Origin: Escherichia virus TH55
Direction: 5' to 3' (one strand)
Length of the DNA stretch: 64,000 bases
Sequence record: MT446421.1
Shown: positions 693-47,445 of the stretch, piece by piece
How the letters are laid out: each line of letters begins with the position of its first letter
Numbering within the stretch: position 1 is the first letter of the stretch
Notes under the pieces: generated by a model
The model's database searches: none
What the model was told of the DNA's origin: nothing
The model's input: only the letters and a program-made list of their open reading frames with translations
Translations under genes and position numbers: made by a program

Positions 693-1064
693 TTATTCCT
701 TAAAGTGTGCTTTCAACATCTGGTAAACGGTCCAGGCTTCAGAGTTATTAGAAATGGTGATTTTAGTCAAAGGGAATTCGCTTGGTTCAGATGTAGCTGC
801 GTCTTCGCATTCATCTTCAGTATCGTCATCTTTTTCTTCTTCAAAGAAACGGAATTCGTCTTCCTTTATGAATAGACTCACAAATTCACCAGTTGATAAT
901 TCCATTTTATACACATCACCATCTTCAATTCTGACTGGTCTAAATCCCTCGCCATTGATTATAGCATTGGCTATATTATCATTATCTGTGCATAACAAAC
1001 GGAATCTGCTTTCAGCAACATTATCTTTAAAATAATACCACTTATCAGTTTCAAATTTAGACAT
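693..1064 (-). CDS. hypothetical acidic protein
   Basis: ORF 693..1187 trimmed to internal ATG (1062-1064) with AGGAGA SD; resolves overlap with 1057..1281. Confidence 0.5.
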   Translation of the reverse strand: MSKFETDKWYYFKDNVAESRFRLLCTDNDNIANAIINGEGFRPVRIEDGDVYKMELSTGEFVSLFIKEDEFRFFEEEKDDDTEDECEDAATSEPSEFPLTKITISNNSEAWTVYQMLKAHFKE

Positions 1065-1281
1065 TATAAATCTCCTTCCAAAAATCTGTACCATCTTCTG
1101 ATTCTTCGCGGAACAGCGCATAGCTAGGTAATTCTGCGTCTTTGTCTGCATACACATAAATGATATCAGTGGTGCAAAGAAATTCATTGATGTTTTTCTT
1201 CACAATCACTTTATCACTTTCAGCAGTGTCCCAAAACTCTTCAGCGGTCAGGGAAGTGGTCACACAATCTTCATTAAACAT
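1057..1281 (-). CDS. hypothetical protein
   Basis: 74-aa ORF, ATG with GAGGAG SD. Confidence 0.5.
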   Translation of the reverse strand: MFNEDCVTTSLTAEEFWDTAESDKVIVKKNINEFLCTTDIIYVYADKDAELPSYALFREESEDGTDFWKEIYNV

Positions 1282-1899: not shown

Positions 1900-2652
1900 T
1901 TAATTAAAAATTTCAACAACCATGGAACGTGGAACAACAGTAAATTCACCAGCATGAACAACGTTCAGGAGTTCAACGCCATCTTCAATCCACTGGTCTG
2001 TTACCCAACCACAAATGGAACTGTTAAATGGGCGTTTGATTTGAACTGGTTTACATAACAAGTCAATAGGGTCACCCAGTTCGCTAACTTCTTCCAGCAG
2101 TACAGATTCACGCGGATAAAGGATAGCTTCAAGATTGTCACCTGATTCATTGACCGCAGTAAATTCAAAGATGCTTTGGTGATTGTGGTACTTAACTGTT
2201 TTAACGGTAAATGGAGCAAATCCAAAAATACCTTTCAGTACGCGCCAACCGGCATTCAATGCATTAGTATTATCAAAATCACCATATCCAACAAGTTGAT
2301 AGATTTTGCCAACTTTGATAGGAGTTTCTTCAACTTCCTTGAAGAGCTCAATCTCAGCTTCATAAACAATAATTTTTTCTACTTCATTAGTATCAAGGCG
2401 ACGTGCATGCAGAATATATGCGTTATAAAACCAGTTACTTTTTACAAAAGTTTCAACAATAAATTCACCTTCACCTAAAGCATCAGCCAGAGTATTATAC
2501 CCAGAAATCATAGCTGCGTTTTGAGTAATAGGTTTAACCAGATGATAAGTTTTGTTAATTTCAATAGTCATATTTTGTTTCTCAAGTTTTAATGGTTTAA
2601 TTGGGCGAACATACATACTTACAACATCAAAGTCAATAAATTCTGGTTTCAT
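1900..2652 (-). CDS. hypothetical protein
   Basis: 250-aa ORF; C-terminal VTDQWIEDGVELLNVV block shared with 1330..1821. Confidence 0.6.
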   Translation of the reverse strand: MKPEFIDFDVVSMYVRPIKPLKLEKQNMTIEINKTYHLVKPITQNAAMISGYNTLADALGEGEFIVETFVKSNWFYNAYILHARRLDTNEVEKIIVYEAEIELFKEVEETPIKVGKIYQLVGYGDFDNTNALNAGWRVLKGIFGFAPFTVKTVKYHNHQSIFEFTAVNESGDNLEAILYPRESVLLEEVSELGDPIDLLCKPVQIKRPFNSSICGWVTDQWIEDGVELLNVVHAGEFTVVPRSMVVEIFN

Positions 2653-2909
2653 TATGCAACCTTATTGAACATCGCCAGTTGATTAGGTTGTACAACCATA
2701 ATTTCACGACGACCTTTGGCGTTTGACACGTTCAGGTAGATGCCTTTGTTCATGTCTGTTTCTTTATCATATACCGCAATTTTATTGACAGTAAAGATTT
2801 TACCACGAATATTTGTAAATGCACATTCAAACGCTTCAGTCAGACCTGCTTCAGCAGCTTGAAGAGCAGACATTTCATATTGTTGGCCAATTTCAAAAGA
2901 AGTAATCAT
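2652..2909 (-). CDS. hypothetical protein
   Basis: ORF 2652..2957 trimmed: upstream 48 nt is the promoter/leader motif; ATG 2907-2909 has GAGGA SD. Confidence 0.55.
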   Translation of the reverse strand: MITSFEIGQQYEMSALQAAEAGLTEAFECAFTNIRGKIFTVNKIAVYDKETDMNKGIYLNVSNAKGRREIMVVQPNQLAMFNKVA

Positions 2910-11788: not shown

Positions 11789-12007
11789 AGTTTCCTCATT
11801 TCAATGGCCCCGAAGGACCATTATACTGTAGGTTTATCGTCTTTATTCTTACGCTTTTTTGATGGGATTTGTTCAGGGCCTTTATTGACAACTGCCCCGG
11901 AAGTGGTACCTGTTGCGATATTAGTTGGGTTTCCACCTGCATCACCGGCAGCCATATCTTCGTTGATAAAATCTTTGAATGTTTTCATAACACCCCCTTT
12001 CCGCTAT

Positions 12008-12199
12008 TTATACAACGAAGATAGCTTTATCACCATTTGCATCAGTCACTTCATAAGTGTCTTCATGATACAACGGAATAATCCAGGTAACACCATCATC
12101 AGCGATAACATGGATTGCTTCTTGGTCTTGCGACACGATTTCATATTCTTCAAAAATCTGGAAGACCGAAATCTTAGAGCCCGTACACATTGCACTCAT
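12008..12199 (-). CDS. hypothetical protein
   Basis: 63-aa acidic ORF. Confidence 0.4.
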   Translation of the reverse strand: MSAMCTGSKISVFQIFEEYEIVSQDQEAIHVIADDGVTWIIPLYHEDTYEVTDANGDKAIFVV

Positions 12200-12395
12200 A
12201 TTGTTCCCTTCTTTTAATCAATTGACGATGTGCCTTTTTAAGTTTACGAATCTGACGTTTGGTCGGTCGTGCAACATAAGCTTGAGTAGTTACTCGTCCA
12301 AAAACTCCATACTTGGGAGACGGAGTATCAATAAAGACTTCCCACTGACAAGAGTAACTATATATTGCTTTAGAGAATTGGGTCAAAACAAACAT
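12174..12395 (-). CDS. small basic protein, PTKRQIR family
   Basis: 73 aa; W-E-V-F-I ... RPTKRQIRKLKK shared with 13548..13787 and 35532..35708. Confidence 0.5.
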   Translation of the reverse strand: MFVLTQFSKAIYSYSCQWEVFIDTPSPKYGVFGRVTTQAYVARPTKRQIRKLKKAHRQLIKRREQYECNVYGL

Positions 12396-12396
12396 A

Positions 12397-12756
12397 TTAA
12401 CCTCGCTTCATGAAGGCATTAAAAATCTGGTCATCAATATCAGTAGGCGGTTCTTGAGCTTTAACCCAAGCCCCTTCCAGAATGTCATTTGCTTCAGTAG
12501 ATATCATGACCCCAATTTCAGGGTTTCCGGTTATCCATACTGCACAATCGCGTACGTTCTTTTTATCAAATGGATAACCACGATTATCTTCACAAGGCCC
12601 ATTCATTGTCATAAACGAACGAGCCTTTATGATAACACCATCTTTAACGATGATATAACCAATCGCCTGATTATAACGGGGCTCACGAAATTCATAGTGA
12701 GCATTACCATTATTATTGCTCACCAGTTCAAAATTCAGAAAATTATAATAACTCAT
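12397..12756 (-). CDS. hypothetical protein
   Basis: 119 aa; C-terminus DDQIFNAFMKRG identical to that of next gene. Confidence 0.5.
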   Translation of the reverse strand: MSYYNFLNFELVSNNNGNAHYEFREPRYNQAIGYIIVKDGVIIKARSFMTMNGPCEDNRGYPFDKKNVRDCAVWITGNPEIGVMISTEANDILEGAWVKAQEPPTDIDDQIFNAFMKRG

Positions 12757-12757
12757 A

Positions 12758-13195
12758 CTAATCTCGCTTCATGAAGGCATTAAAAATCTGGTCGTCAACT
12801 GAATAAACAGGATTTTCCAGAATTTTCAAAAGACTGTTTTTGATGTACTTGCCAGGGATACCCATATTAACAATACTGTCATTCAATTCATTGTCAGGGT
12901 TGATGTCTTTAAATTCAAACCCTTCAAACTCAACCTTGTCAGGAATACCATCAGCGAAAAAATAAACCAATTGGTGCATTGTATTGCGCGAAAATAATTT
13001 AGACTTGACTGCAATAAGTTCTTTCCAATGGTTTAATTCTTTGTTAAGAAGTTTATGAGCAAACGTAATTCTATCATCACTATCAACAAGAAAATAACCC
13101 AGATATTGAATTTCGTCGCTCCAAAACACCCTGTATGCCTGCGCATTTGGATTTTTACAACGAAGTTTTTTGATAACCAAATTTCTGTTAATCAT
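12758..13195 (-). CDS. hypothetical protein
   Basis: Trimmed to ATG 13193-13195 (AGGTGA SD); C-terminus DDQIFNAFMKRD. Confidence 0.45.
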   Translation of the reverse strand: MINRNLVIKKLRCKNPNAQAYRVFWSDEIQYLGYFLVDSDDRITFAHKLLNKELNHWKELIAVKSKLFSRNTMHQLVYFFADGIPDKVEFEGFEFKDINPDNELNDSIVNMGIPGKYIKNSLLKILENPVYSVDDQIFNAFMKRD

Positions 13196-13196
13196 T

Positions 13197-13490
13197 TTAT
13201 TCACCTGTAACCCATTGAACAATTTTGCTATTGTCAAATGAAGCATCGCAATACAGAACATAGTTATACTGCATAACGTCACCAGAAGTCAATTGGTCAG
13301 ATACTTCTTTAACCATATCAGGGCGGTCACGTTTAGTAATATTCATGATGTCAGCGCGAATTTGAGTTTCAACATCAGTTTGGTCCGCAGTCATAGACCA
13401 CTCACAAAGGTTTTTATCAAGTCCAGCAGTAACTGGAGCTGTACCACATGATGCTACGGTAAGAATTGCCGCGATTAATAACTTTTTCAT
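13197..13490 (-). CDS. putative lipoprotein
   Basis: 97 aa; signal peptide with lipobox VASC; GGAG SD. Confidence 0.55.
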   Translation of the reverse strand: MKKLLIAAILTVASCGTAPVTAGLDKNLCEWSMTADQTDVETQIRADIMNITKRDRPDMVKEVSDQLTSGDVMQYNYVLYCDASFDNSKIVQWVTGE

Positions 13491-13518
13491 TTCAATCTCC
13501 TCAGTAGTTGATATGGAT

Positions 13519-13547
13519 AATATACAGCATTATCCCTTTGTTGTACA
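13519..13547 (-). promoter_or_regulatory. early-type promoter
   Basis: -35 TGTACA 13542-13547, 17 bp, -10 TATATT 13519-13524. Confidence 0.5.
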
Positions 13548-13787
13548 CTATTTTAATGCATCTTCCAGATAAATTTTACGGAATTTGCGTTTTGTCTGAC
13601 GAATCTGACGCTTGGTAGGTTTCACAGGAAATTCGAAGAACTCTACGTATTCTTGTTCATAACCGCCATGGTCTTCCGAAAGAACTAGTTCCCAGCTGCT
13701 TACGGTGCGTTGGATAAACATATTATGCTTACCAAAAGATTTATTCCAAAAAGAACTAGGGGTAGGTTTCATTAATGTGATATTCAT
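13548..13787 (-). CDS. small basic protein, PTKRQIR family
   Basis: 79 aa; ...KPTKRQIRQTKRKF. Confidence 0.5.
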   Translation of the reverse strand: MNITLMKPTPSSFWNKSFGKHNMFIQRTVSSWELVLSEDHGGYEQEYVEFFEFPVKPTKRQIRQTKRKFRKIYLEDALK

Positions 13788-13991
13788 TTAAATTTCCTCA
13801 ATGCGGGCATCATATTCAAAAACTTTATTGTCATTAACAAAGGCTTTAACCAGCGCATTATTCACTTCTGCATACTGCACTGTAACCCATTCAATCATAT
13901 TTTGGTCACTAACATCCAGCGCGGTTTCTTTGGTAAACATATTACCATTTTCAAACCAACCAATAAACACTACGTTCTCTAATTTATACAT
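13788..13991 (-). CDS. dmd: Dmd antitoxin (inhibitor of RnlA/LsoA)
   Basis: 67 aa; VVFIGWFENGNMFTKE...QYAEVNNALVKAF matches recalled T4 Dmd; sits between 61 and 41. Confidence 0.8.
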   Translation of the reverse strand: MYKLENVVFIGWFENGNMFTKETALDVSDQNMIEWVTVQYAEVNNALVKAFVNDNKVFEYDARIEEI

Positions 13992-14309
13992 TTAGATTTC
14001 CTCACAGAAGGCCCAGGCGGCGTGATAAACGGTTGCGCCTTTAGTATCATTTAAACAAACCACGTCAACAGGTGCAATCACACGATAAAGACGGGGTTCT
14101 CCTCCATATGAGCGAGCTGCTCTTCCTGCATAGATACGCGCCAAACCAATATCTTCAGTAAAAAACACACGCCCTAAATTTTTCTTACGCCCAACTTCTG
14201 ACAGAACACCAGTTGCATCAGGAGGGCAAAGCATATTTTGGATTCCAGCATTAGAGCTTGAGCCATGATAATAAACTTTGTATTCCGCCTTGCAATCAAT
14301 AGTTTTCAT
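13992..14309 (-). CDS. hypothetical protein with H-G-S motif (possible Arr/Tpt1-like ART fold)
   Basis: 105 aa; YYHGSSSN ... GRVFFTEDIGLARIYAG; functional call speculative. Confidence 0.45.
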   Translation of the reverse strand: MKTIDCKAEYKVYYHGSSSNAGIQNMLCPPDATGVLSEVGRKKNLGRVFFTEDIGLARIYAGRAARSYGGEPRLYRVIAPVDVVCLNDTKGATVYHAAWAFCEEI

Positions 14310-14353
14310 TTTATTCTCCAGTAGTTGATAGGGTCATTATAACATAAGAAAAA

Positions 14354-14368
14354 GGGGCCGTAAGCCCC
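14354..14368 (-). terminator. rho-independent terminator after gene 41
   Basis: GGGGC-loop-GCCCC hairpin with T-run. Confidence 0.65.
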
Positions 14369-14380
14369 TTTTAAAATATT

Positions 14381-15820
14381 TTAAAATTTCATTTGAGCAG
14401 CAAGGTCATCCAGGTCGCTCCTGTTGACCCTGGTTTGTCGATTCATTTCGGCCTGGCGATTCATCTCACCGGTGGCTTCTTTAACCGTAGGGCCTTGTTT
14501 AGGAGCCGAATCATCATCAACCTCATACCAGCGCTGATTACCTTTCTTAACACCCATCTTGAATTTATTATAGTAGTTCTTATCACCATAACGAGACTTA
14601 AGCTGTTTGATTAACTGCAGCCCCATTTGAGCGAATTCTTCGGTCTCAACAACACCCAGCATAAAGTCAGCCGTGTGAGCAATACCAAAGGATTCTGCAA
14701 TGTCAGCCATATCAATCTCGGCTGCAACGTTCGCGCCCCTGGTTGTCTGCGCTGCAGTCCACAAGACCACATTTTTCTCAACTGCCAGACCACGAAGTTC
14801 TTCTGCAACCATCTTAATCAGGCCGTAACTGTTTTCGGTAAACGTTTTCAGTCTTGAGCTTGCACAGATTGCCAGGTAGTCAACAATAATCACATCCGGT
14901 ACAAACCCTTGCTTCAGTTTGTACTCGTTCAGTAATGCACGGAAGGTATCCGCATGAGCACCACCAGTTGGATATTGTTTTATCTTCAGAGTCCCGAGAG
15001 TCCCGGAAGCACGCCATTTTTCCATCTTAGCTTTATATTCCGCCCATGATATATGACCTTCATCAATATCATCCAGAGATACATCCAGCAAGTTGGCATC
15101 AATACGTTTGGCACATACTTCTTCGGCCATTTCCATGCTTATATAAAGAACGTTATGACCAGTCTGAAGATAGTCAGCCGCTAACGAACAAAGCCCCAGA
15201 GATTTACCGACATTCGTCCCGGCTAGTAAAACGTTCTCTGTACCGTACTCAACCCCGCCTTTCGTAATTTTATTCAGGATGTTAATGCGGAACGGAACTT
15301 TCTTCGATTTGTTCAGATAAGTCTGGAATCGAGCCTCGTAATCGTTTAACCAGTCATGACCAAGGGCAGAATCAAAACAGATGGACAATGCATCACGCAT
15401 GATGTCAGGGATAGCACCGATATCCGGGATTCGTTTATCACGTTTATCTTTAGGAAGTTCGGCATTACTCTGGATTTCGATAATCCTGGATGTGGCATTG
15501 AACATCGCAGACTTCTGTACATACTTTTCGGTTTCTCTAACCAACCATTCCTGGTCTTCTGGAGTATCGGCCAGGACTCCTAAAAGTTTCTTTGTGCCTT
15601 CATATTCGACTTCAGAAAGGTCAGAGTTGTCAAGTGCAATATCAAGTGCAGTCTTAGTTGGTACAGCTTGATATTCTTTTACGTGTTCGTTAATCGTATT
15701 AAAAAGGGTCTTCGCGGGACCCTTTTCAAAATATGTGCTATTCAGATATGGCCAGACTTTAACAAAATATTCCTTGTTAAAGAGTAGCTGGGATAAAATA
15801 GTTTCTACCACTTCCACCAC
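14381..15820 (-). CDS. 41: replicative DNA helicase gp41 (DnaB-like)
   Basis: 479 aa; Walker A GTNVGKS; colinear with recalled T4 gp41. Confidence 0.9.
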   Translation of the reverse strand: MVEVVETILSQLLFNKEYFVKVWPYLNSTYFEKGPAKTLFNTINEHVKEYQAVPTKTALDIALDNSDLSEVEYEGTKKLLGVLADTPEDQEWLVRETEKYVQKSAMFNATSRIIEIQSNAELPKDKRDKRIPDIGAIPDIMRDALSICFDSALGHDWLNDYEARFQTYLNKSKKVPFRINILNKITKGGVEYGTENVLLAGTNVGKSLGLCSLAADYLQTGHNVLYISMEMAEEVCAKRIDANLLDVSLDDIDEGHISWAEYKAKMEKWRASGTLGTLKIKQYPTGGAHADTFRALLNEYKLKQGFVPDVIIVDYLAICASSRLKTFTENSYGLIKMVAEELRGLAVEKNVVLWTAAQTTRGANVAAEIDMADIAESFGIAHTADFMLGVVETEEFAQMGLQLIKQLKSRYGDKNYYNKFKMGVKKGNQRWYEVDDDSAPKQGPTVKEATGEMNRQAEMNRQTRVNRSDLDDLAAQMKF

Positions 15821-35496: not shown

Positions 35497-35531
35497 AATA
35501 AACCCTTACCATTATTAGATAAGGGTATTTA

Positions 35532-35708
35532 TTAAATCTTATAAAACGCGCGGTGTAACCGTTTAAATTGACGAATCATCTTTTTAGTAGGACGAGTATA
35601 CAATCCTACACAGGTGGCCATAAACTGGTCGGTAGGACTTCCTTTAATAAGAAGTTTCCAGACCTTGACACCATTTAACTTTTCGGTATAGACTAATGCA
35701 GTTTTCAT
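35532..35708 (-). CDS. small basic protein, PTKRQIR family (58 aa)
   Basis: Not in ORF track; ...RPTKKMIRQFKRLHR; ATGA overlap with upstream stop. Confidence 0.4.
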   Translation of the reverse strand: MKTALVYTEKLNGVKVWKLLIKGSPTDQFMATCVGLYTRPTKKMIRQFKRLHRAFYKI

Positions 35709-36007
35709 GCGACCTCAAATTCATTATCATCGTTAGTCCAAAAACACCAGAATGAAGCTTTAGTATCTTCAAACATTTCTTTAGTGTATTCGTATACCTT
35801 ACCATTGAATTCGATAGCAGTTACGCCAATGATTTCAGGATTGCCCCATGGAGAAATCTCCACCTTCAAGATTTTAACTTCAGCACCTTCACAGAGCTCG
35901 CCTGACTCAAAACCGCGATTGCCGTTTAATTCAGGCCAGTCAACATAATGGTCAACATCTTCTTCAGTAATACGAACAGTTTTACCTTCAAATTCAAATA
36001 AATTCAT
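35705..36007 (-). CDS. hypothetical acidic protein
   Basis: 100-aa ORF. Confidence 0.5.
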   Translation of the reverse strand: MNLFEFEGKTVRITEEDVDHYVDWPELNGNRGFESGELCEGAEVKILKVEISPWGNPEIIGVTAIEFNGKVYEYTKEMFEDTKASFWCFWTNDDNEFEVA

Positions 36008-36180
36008 CAGAAGGCCTCATCAGCAAAGCGAAGTTGAGCTTCAAGCCAATGGATATAATCCGCCGCGGCAAAAATTAAAGCAGATTCTTCATCAGGTAAC
36101 TTACGGGAATCCGACAGTTCATAAAGTGATTTTTCAATCAGGCGGCCTTTATGACGGCCAATTTCAATTTTGGTACTCAT
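36007..36180 (-). CDS. small protein (57 aa)
   Basis: Not in ORF track; stop overlaps downstream ATG. Confidence 0.3.
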   Translation of the reverse strand: MSTKIEIGRHKGRLIEKSLYELSDSRKLPDEESALIFAAADYIHWLEAQLRFADEAF

Positions 36181-36297
36181 ATCCAAACTCCATATCGATT
36201 AAATCATTGTTTGAAGGTTCATTATAATCTATTTCGGAATCGTTGTAAACAGGTTCCTCTGGCTCGACGGTTTCCCATCGAGCGGTATACCATGGTT

Positions 36298-46872: not shown

Positions 46873-47445
46873 TCAGCTTGTTAATTCGAGCCAGTGTTTT
46901 CTGCATAAAGATACGTACGATTCATTCCCACCGACTAACACTTGCTCGCCGTCCTTTACAGCAGCACCGTCGATTACTCTCGCGGTCATGGTTGCTTTCC
47001 GGCCGCAATGACAGACGCCCTTTAATTCAACCAGTTTATCCGAAATAGCCAGAAGTCTGGCTGAACCGGGAAATAATTGACCCCGAAAATCTGTTCTTAA
47101 CCCGTAACACATAACGGGGATATTGTAATTATCAACCACTTGAGCTAACTGGTCAATTTGCTCTGGTAACAAAAATTGAGCTTCATCGACCAGGACACAA
47201 TGGATATCCTTTTGAGACTCGGCCCATTTATAGAATTCAAACAGGTTCATGTCGGCCGTTACCAGGTTTGCTTCCTGGCTAATACCAATACGTGATTTAA
47301 TTTCAGATTCCGAGTCCCGATTATCAATAACAGGTTTTAGCAAAAGCACACTCATTCCACGCTCTTTATAGGAATAAGCTGCAGTCAGCAATGAAGCTGT
47401 TTTGCCTGCATTCATTGCTGCGTAATGATAAATTAAACTCGCCAT
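46873..47445 (-). CDS. tk: thymidine kinase
   Basis: 190 aa; P-loop AAMNAGKT, C-terminal Cys/His zinc site CHCGRKA. Confidence 0.9.
   Translation of the reverse strand: MASLIYHYAAMNAGKTASLLTAAYSYKERGMSVLLLKPVIDNRDSESEIKSRIGISQEANLVTADMNLFEFYKWAESQKDIHCVLVDEAQFLLPEQIDQLAQVVDNYNIPVMCYGLRTDFRGQLFPGSARLLAISDKLVELKGVCHCGRKATMTARVIDGAAVKDGEQVLVGGNESYVSLCRKHWLELTS

Follow-up and report, generated by a model that had tools for sequence, protein, structure and literature searches.

Three paralogous members of the TifA family encoded by a T4-like Escherichia phage

Three small ORFs at two loci

The DNA analysed here (the window) is a stretch of 64,000 nucleotides from Escherichia virus TH55 (MT446421.1). 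We observed that it carries three small ORFs on the minus strand, here called A, B and C, which encode proteins of 73, 79 and 58 aa. The proteins are basic (pI 10.1, 9.7 and 10.5, respectively), and a GAGG Shine-Dalgarno sequence is present 5-9 nt 5' of the ATG in each case. The original prediction had described three small basic proteins with a PTK(R/K)xIR motif at these positions and had likened them to proteins of early regions. The ORFs, the motif and the early-gene setting were confirmed, the phage being T4-like; the neighbouring genes 61, 41, dmd and 49 had also been named correctly.

A and B are found in the interval between genes 61 and 41, which has been described as a possible "anti-TA island" (PMC9391042). 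The sequence from 11800 to 14400 is shared at 100% identity with the Escherichia phages TH22 and UPEC07, and at 84-86% with T-even phages of the JS98 group. The genes at this locus, following the JS98 annotation, are gene 61 (primase), 61.1, sp, 61.4, dmd and gene 41 (helicase). The features of the interval are as follows:

12174..12395, minus strand: paralog A, 73 aa (DUF7279, E 3.3e-20)
12234..12269, minus strand: motif of A, RPTKRQIRKLKK, the Pro-Thr helix cap and basic face of the helix (from the translation; aligns with R52-R63 of T4 and RB69 TifA)
13548..13787, minus strand: paralog B, 79 aa (DUF7279, E 2.4e-19; phrog_2375, E 1.8e-34)
13587..13622, minus strand: motif of B, KPTKRQIRQTKR (from the translation; aligned with TifA)
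13788..13991, minus strand: dmd, antitoxin against RnlA/LsoA (Pfam Dmd, E 1.6e-20), co-operonic with B and directly upstream of it
14337..14308, minus strand: promoter-like site after the gene 41 hairpin (consensus scan only)
14372..14350, minus strand: terminator-like hairpin 3' of gene 41 (consensus scan only)

The ATG of B directly abuts the stop codon of dmd with no gap, as that of tifA does in T4. The dmd-tifA order is the same as in the T4 genome, and corresponds to the arrangement described by Srikant et al. in 2022 (PMC9391042). B is thus the positional ortholog of T4 tifA (gene 61.4), and the ortholog of B is labelled 61.4 in the JS98 annotation. The gene 41 hairpin and the promoter-like site (14308..14372) both lie upstream of a 105-aa ORF, dmd and B. 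This 105-aa ORF (13992..14309) had been considered as an Arr-type ADP-ribosyltransferase because of a resemblance to these enzymes; searches of Pfam, NCBIfam and the PDB sequences all gave no support, and the candidate was dropped.

A lies downstream of B among ORFs with AdfA-like tails, and begins 1 nt past the stop codon of one of them, a 119-aa ORF. Of AdfA itself, only the C-terminal tail motif was seen in the window, carried by two ORFs. The distance from A to dmd is 1.2 kb, with sp and two other ORFs in between. Two of the three proteins had been predicted to lie next to dmd; both are indeed in the 61-41 interval, but only B adjoins dmd.

C lies at a separate locus, about 22 kb from dmd, where it closes a small pin-like unit:

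35502..35526, minus strand: terminator-like hairpin, 6 nt past the stop codon of C (consensus scan only)
35532..35708, minus strand: paralog C, 58 aa, the shortest member of the TifA family (DUF7279, E 3.8e-16; phrog_3272, E 4.7e-33)
35559..35594, minus strand: motif of C, RPTKKMIRQFKR (from the translation; aligned with TifA)
36007..36186 and 35705..36007, minus strand: two pin-like ORFs upstream of C (Pfam PinA Inhibitor_I24, E 1.7e-6 and 3.2e-6; tblastn with T4 and RB69 Pin)
36221..36249, minus strand: promoter-like site opening the pin-like/C unit, with TTTACA-17-TATAAT and 11 of 12 matches (consensus scan only)

The pin-like ORF at 35705..36007 overlaps the start codon of C (ATGA). The third protein had been placed after gene 49, and it does adjoin this gene; in the direction of transcription, however, C is just upstream of it. 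RB69 ORF087c and a gene of RB33 are C-type genes in the same pin-X-49 position as here, and C is 53% identical to ORF087c. NCBIfam gave no match for A, B, C or their neighbours.

Assignment to the TifA family

The motif (R/K)PTK(R/K)xIRxxK(R/K) is exact in all three proteins, with the core PTKRQIR in A and B and PTKKMIR in C. The W-x-(V/L)-(F/L)-I element that had been proposed to precede it holds for A (WEVFI) and C (WKLLI), while B, with WELVL, departs from it. A six-frame translation of the window contains three instances of the motif, where 4.7e-5 are expected analytically, and none of 200 composition-matched shuffles contained it. Pairwise Smith-Waterman comparisons of A, B and C gave z values of 6.6-7.9, and in none of 2000 shuffles was the observed score reached. 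The motif similarity had been open to refutation by such shuffles and it withstood them; chance similarity as the source of the shared motif is excluded.

The pairwise signal is confined to the motif and the helix, about 15 residues. The N-terminal halves of A, B and C showed no significant pairwise similarity (z -0.5 to 0.8), and the mutual identity of the three proteins is only 24-28%. Homology along the whole proteins was taken from profiles, DUF7279 covering 50-51 residues of each.

Against Pfam PF23945 (DUF7279), which has a gathering score of 24.5 bits, A, B and C scored 72.2, 69.4 and 59.2 bits (E values in the lists above), and T4 gp61.4 (TifA) scored 72.7 bits (E 2.3e-20). The N-terminal halves of A and B could also be related directly to that of T4 TifA (z 7.5 and 10.1, respectively); for C, no pairwise N-terminal similarity to TifA was found. 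A, B and C are thus shown to be paralogous members of the TifA family (T4 gp61.4, DUF7279). A family HMM detected no fourth copy, leaving exactly three members in the window; beyond the stretch that corresponds to the window, the identical genome of UPEC07 likewise yielded none. T4 has a single family member in its whole genome, and JS98 carries both A-type and B-type genes.

The family has already been described. The name tifA (ToxN inhibitory factor A) was given to gene 61.4 by Srikant, Guegler and Laub (eLife 2022, PMC9391042), who found that amplification of the dmd-tifA operon lets T4 overcome toxIN, a type III toxin-antitoxin system, and that the endoribonuclease ToxN is inhibited by the TifA protein. 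Guegler et al. (NAR 2023, PMC10853763) identified a C-terminal basic helix with a conserved Pro-Thr cap as the RNA-binding part of TifA. The P53A T54A and the K55A R56A R59A mutants both lost RNA binding, ToxN rescue and co-precipitation of ToxN (PMC10853763). The original prediction had given the function of these proteins as unknown; this no longer holds, since the family is that of TifA, for which inhibition of ToxN and binding of RNA have been published (PMC9391042, PMC10853763).

In our alignments, the shared motif falls on R52-R63 of T4 TifA, including P53, T54, K55, R56 and R59. Across the family, conservation reaches 98% for P, 96% for T, 93% for K and 100% for R59. These alignments show the motif to match the Pro-Thr N-cap and the basic face of the TifA RNA-binding helix, a correspondence read from aligned residues.

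The predicted structures are in agreement with this. The AlphaFold2 model of A (pLDDT 77.5) has strands at residues 2-9, 16-24 and 34-40 and a helix at 46-61, and that of C (pLDDT 81.7) has strands at 2-9, 15-22 and 31-36 and a helix at 42-55. Both models support the published TifA topology, a three-stranded sheet followed by a C-terminal helix. The beta2-beta3 loop has 8 residues in the C model, versus about 20 described for T4 TifA. A profile and sequence search of the PDB gave no match and no solved structure for the family. With the A model, Foldseek found nothing significant in the PDB; the best match was the DHX9 dsRBD (E 1.0, TM 0.42), and a dsRNA-binding domain fold was rejected on this ground. 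The C model had no significant or informative match in BFVD. C had also been considered as the chromatin protein Cren7 (PF11520), and was discarded at E 0.13 and 12.7 bits, below the gathering score of 25 bits.

We also evaluated the distribution of the family. When 1.84 billion representative proteins were searched with a profile, only 38 clusters were returned at E up to 0.001, among which P0015 and P0023 were discarded as translated repeats. Word-indexed homolog searches retrieved only 5 and 12 close relatives. Three tblastn searches of a phage collection matched 339-655 records each, the C-type genes occurring in 339 records. Escherichia phages made up most of the matches; phages of Shigella, Yersinia, Salmonella, Citrobacter and Klebsiella accounted for some, and a few phages that are not T4-like, e.g. 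IME11 and Moogle, were matched as well. With homologs in other phage types, adjacency to dmd is not needed for membership of the TifA family. In a 2026 survey, tifa is counted with the anti-defence genes that characterise the genomes of Tevenvirinae.

PHROGs matched only families of unknown function, and the UPEC07 annotations call these proteins "DNA polymerase" and "nucleotidyltransferase". Literature searches with DUF7279, ORF087c and the PHROG identifiers returned nothing relevant. Neither of the TifA papers (PMC9391042, PMC10853763) mentions paralogs within one genome, and we found no study of a C-type protein in the literature, including the test panel of Guegler et al. The three-copy state and the C clade are thus modest new details of a family that is already described.

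Selection, variability and presence of individual copies

In a neighbour-joining tree each of the three proteins belongs to a different clade: A forms one of its own, and B groups with the T4, RB69 and VR7 proteins. B is 45% identical to T4 gp61.4 (tblastn) and 92% identical to JS98 TifA. A shares 71 of 73 residues with TifA_vB_EcoM_005 (Table S2 of Guegler et al. 2023). All three genes are under purifying selection (dN/dS 0.06-0.28); the values are 0.06 for A against JS98 orf29, 0.11 for B against JS98 TifA, and 0.27 for C.

Variation is unevenly spread along the proteins. Over 56 family sequences, column entropy was low in the cap and helix (1.09 bits) and higher at the N-terminus (2.83 bits) and in the beta2-beta3 loop (3.19 bits). 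When B was compared with its 95%-identical ortholog from phage pEC-M719-6WT.2, all four amino acid differences were in residues 38-42, within the beta2-beta3 loop (SEDHGG against SVGHND, two alleles of the B clade). In T4 TifA, this loop contains F41, the substitution of which tunes ToxN inhibition.

A and B also vary in their presence. A is cleanly absent from pEC-M719-6WT.2 and EAWsc9, which are about 95% identical across the locus. In UPEC01 and EAWsc9, a 113-aa ORF with a Dmd-like segment replaces B at its exact boundaries. All four combinations of presence and absence of A and B occur among the genomes of about 95% identity. A and B thus behave as accessory cassettes that are gained and lost independently, as is typical of counter-defence genes.

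At the C locus, we noted a repeat in RB33. Pin and the C-type protein of this phage end in duplicated stretches of 16 residues (QMIRQYKRLHQMFYNT and KMIRQYKRLHRMFYNT, respectively), which gives a direct repeat of about 51 nt with a copy on each side of the C-type gene. T4 has one chimeric copy of this repeat, and the C-type gene is absent. The lack of a C-type paralog in T4 may be explained by recombination between the repeats of about 51 nt, T4 having either lost the gene or never gained it.

Candidate function and comparison with known systems

Close homologs of two of the three proteins have been assayed. TifA_vB_EcoM_005, which is A with 2 substitutions, and TifA_JS98, which is 92% identical to B, neutralised none of 7 toxins in E. 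coli (PMC10853763). The toxin panel comprised six ToxN homologs and TenpN, and the only TifA proteins that neutralised any of them were those of T2, T4, T6 and RB69 (PMC10853763). Expression was confirmed for two of the homologs that did not neutralise, and the TifA homologs were found to be toxin-specific (PMC10853763). A- and B-type proteins are therefore already in print as "TifA homologs" with negative results, and the panel did not include a C-type protein (PMC10853763). RNA binding has been demonstrated for RB69 and T4 TifA only; the ToxN mutations that escape TifA map to the toxI-binding pocket (PMC10853763).

The reading that we favour, and regard as probably correct, is that A, B and C are TifA paralogs which bind RNA through the helix and which each act against a different RNase toxin. 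From the conserved residues, A, B and C would each bind RNA via the basic helix. As proposed by Guegler et al. for TifA, which may use an abundant RNA such as 16S rRNA to trap ToxN (PMC10853763), the toxin would be held in an inactive RNA-protein complex, a step modelled on T4 and RB69. Strand 1, the beta1-beta2 hairpin and the beta2-beta3 loop may form the surface that recognizes the toxin. Each copy would then neutralise a different RNase toxin of an abortive-infection or toxin-antitoxin system early in infection, with B expressed in the dmd-tifA operon, A as an extra cassette of the same anti-toxin island, and C expressed together with the pin-like genes. The division into a conserved helix and variable recognition parts is drawn from the entropy profile, the loop differences of B and the accessory-cassette behaviour. 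The reading is further favoured by the counter-defence neighbourhood, with dmd next to B and AdfA-like tails around A, by the toxin specificity of the published TifA homologs and by the placement of A, B and C in different clades.

A more specific version of this is tentative. The three paralogs might be a set of RNA-dependent anti-toxins whose targets do not overlap, A and C each acting against a distinct RNase defence (for example, CptN/TenpN-like type III toxins or other abortive-infection nucleases). C and the pin-like genes would then constitute a second anti-TA module, and recombination at short direct repeats, which code for C-terminal tails in common, would allow the gain and loss of the cassettes. 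Pin is an inhibitor of the Lon protease, which degrades antitoxins.

Other explanations were weighed against the preferred one. If all three proteins, or at least B, were plain ToxN inhibitors, the extra copies would serve to raise the dose, as in the tandem amplification of tifA in evolved T4. The position of B in the tifA slot after dmd and the intact RNA-binding helix residues of A, B and C fit with this, as does the finding that plasmid-borne toxIN is overcome by a higher dose of TifA (PMC9391042). However, at 24-28% identity and in separate clades, A, B and C are not recent dosage duplicates, and the A and B homologs did not neutralise the E. coli ToxN or five other ToxN homologs (PMC10853763), so that we consider the dosage explanation unlikely. 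The three could instead be general RNA-binding or host-takeover proteins that bind, for example, 16S rRNA or mRNA and alter translation or RNA stability. TifA shows little sequence preference in its binding of RNA, ssDNA and dsDNA, and 16S rRNA is among its partners (PMC10853763), the proteins are strongly basic (pI 9.7-10.5), and anti-ToxN activity is absent in the A and B homologs. Yet the published TifA is toxin-specific, and its authors argue against simple coating of RNA (PMC10853763); moreover, A and B behave as dispensable cassettes among near-identical genomes, and sequence variation is concentrated in the loops. This second explanation is rather unlikely, and the term "host-takeover factor", which the original prediction had suggested, is not the best label, since those members that have been characterised counter a toxin-antitoxin defence and do not act in host shutdown.

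Finally, the limitation of the pairwise similarity to about 15 residues might suggest a chance or low-complexity basic motif, or that A and C are decaying, non-functional duplicates; decay is known in the family, where RB69 ORF089c is a truncated member of 38 aa. The probability that we assign to this is close to nil. The motif was observed 3 times against about 5e-5 expected per window, the profile E values range from 1e-16 to 1e-20 over 50 residues, and AlphaFold2 predicts the same fold for A and C. With dN/dS of 0.06-0.28 and intact ORFs with ribosome-binding sites, gene decay of A or C is excluded. The finding of three TifA paralogs bears on a question left by the TifA papers, namely the role of the many homologs that fail to inhibit ToxN. 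Here one phage has three divergent, selectively maintained copies, of which the C type is absent from T4 and two vary among near-identical phages, and A, B and C thus offer a natural set for finding new RNase-based defence systems and their inhibitors. In practical terms, the assignment tells annotators what these "hypothetical proteins" are.

Among known systems, TifA of T4 (gp61.4) and RB69 is the closest to the proteins described here. It shares with A, B and C the Pfam family, the Pro-Thr cap and the basic helix residues, along with the predicted fold (A and C modelled) and an early-gene location, and B occupies the same slot after dmd. It differs in that A and C are at other loci, and in that there are three copies here versus one in T4. 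Further, the T4 and RB69 proteins inhibit ToxN, whereas close homologs of A and B inhibit none of the ToxN and TenpN toxins tested.

Dmd (T4 gp61.5) resembles TifA in being a small early phage protein directed against a host endoribonuclease toxin (the RnlA and LsoA RNases). Its gene shares an operon with B, and a Dmd-like ORF fills the exact slot of B in close relatives. In sequence and in Pfam family (PF17587), however, Dmd is unrelated to TifA. Dmd binds its toxins directly, without RNA. ToxI, the RNA antitoxin of the type III ToxIN system, inhibits the same class of toxin as TifA, but ToxI is a host-encoded repetitive RNA, while TifA-family proteins come from the phage and take cellular RNA as their co-factor. 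AdfA (T4 gp61.2, anti-DarT) is likewise an accessory small protein of the "anti-TA island" with allele-dependent specificity; it is unrelated to TifA, and its target is a DNA ADP-ribosyltransferase.

AdfA-like tails and ORFs around dmd

The C-terminal tail of the T4 anti-DarT factor AdfA (gp61.2) was observed at the end of both of two neighbouring ORFs in the window. These and the other features near dmd are as follows:

12397..12756 and 12758..13282, minus strand: the two AdfA-tailed ORFs
12392-12437 and 12753-12798: direct repeats encoding the AdfA-like tails
13992..14309, minus strand: conserved ORF (105 aa) flanked by gene 41 and dmd
2048..2389 in the UPEC01 locus (L008) and 2563..2904 in the EAWsc9 locus (L002): 113-aa ORF in the tifA slot

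The tails of the pair read DDQIFNAFMKRG/D, and that of T4 AdfA reads DDQIFNAFMNRG; no full-length AdfA homolog was found in the window. Both tails are encoded by direct repeats of about 46 nt that share 93% identity, and the segment between them (12439..12753) is exactly what the related phage JS98 is missing.

The JS98 annotation likens the 105-aa ORF to RB69 orf040c; searches of Pfam, NCBIfam and PDB sequences gave no match to it. A resemblance to Arr-type ADP-ribosyltransferases was considered and not supported by these searches.

When we examined the close relatives UPEC01 and EAWsc9, the tifA slot after dmd was seen to be taken by a 113-aa ORF, which replaces the stretch corresponding to window positions 13555..13783. 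Since part of this ORF, YNALVEAFVDDKLIHKVDMRKG, is Dmd-like (a sub-threshold match to Pfam Dmd, E 0.0017), the ORF may represent a second, extended Dmd-like gene.

Annotation and RB69 members of the family

The UPEC07 record MW250787, which is identical to the window, gives the TifA-family genes and their neighbours unrelated names (including 'DNA polymerase', 'nucleotidyltransferase' and 'clamp loader subunit'), and these appear to be annotation errors. We also observed a truncated member of DUF7279 (E 2.6e-10) upstream of pin in RB69, the 38-aa ORF089c (960..1076 in the RB69 locus, L007), so that RB69 holds TifA, ORF087c and the ORF089c fragment.

Pin and the C-type gene

The window homolog of pin, the Lon protease inhibitor gene, consists of two successive ORFs with the domain order reversed. 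The match to the PinA profile is C-terminal for the upstream ORF (59 aa; profile positions 88-136) and N-terminal for the downstream one (100 aa; positions 3-74).

36007..36186 and 35705..36007, minus strand: pin-like ORFs
35532..35600: window segment compared with the RB33 and T4 repeats
817-881 and 1030-1094 in the RB33 locus (L010): direct repeat flanking the C-type gene
About 46881-46961 in AF158101: single chimeric repeat of T4

In tequatroviruses, the C-terminus of the C-type TifA paralog is duplicated as the last 16 aa of the adjacent Pin (RMIQQYKRLHQMFYNT in T4). The window has no counterpart of this Pin/C-type direct repeat, and RB69 Pin (137 aa) has no C-type-like C-terminal tail. 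In RB33, the duplicated C-terminus gives rise to direct repeats, each about 51 nt in length, that flank the C-type gene on both sides. T4 has one chimeric repeat only and lacks the C-type gene, which is consistent with loss of the gene through recombination between the repeats.
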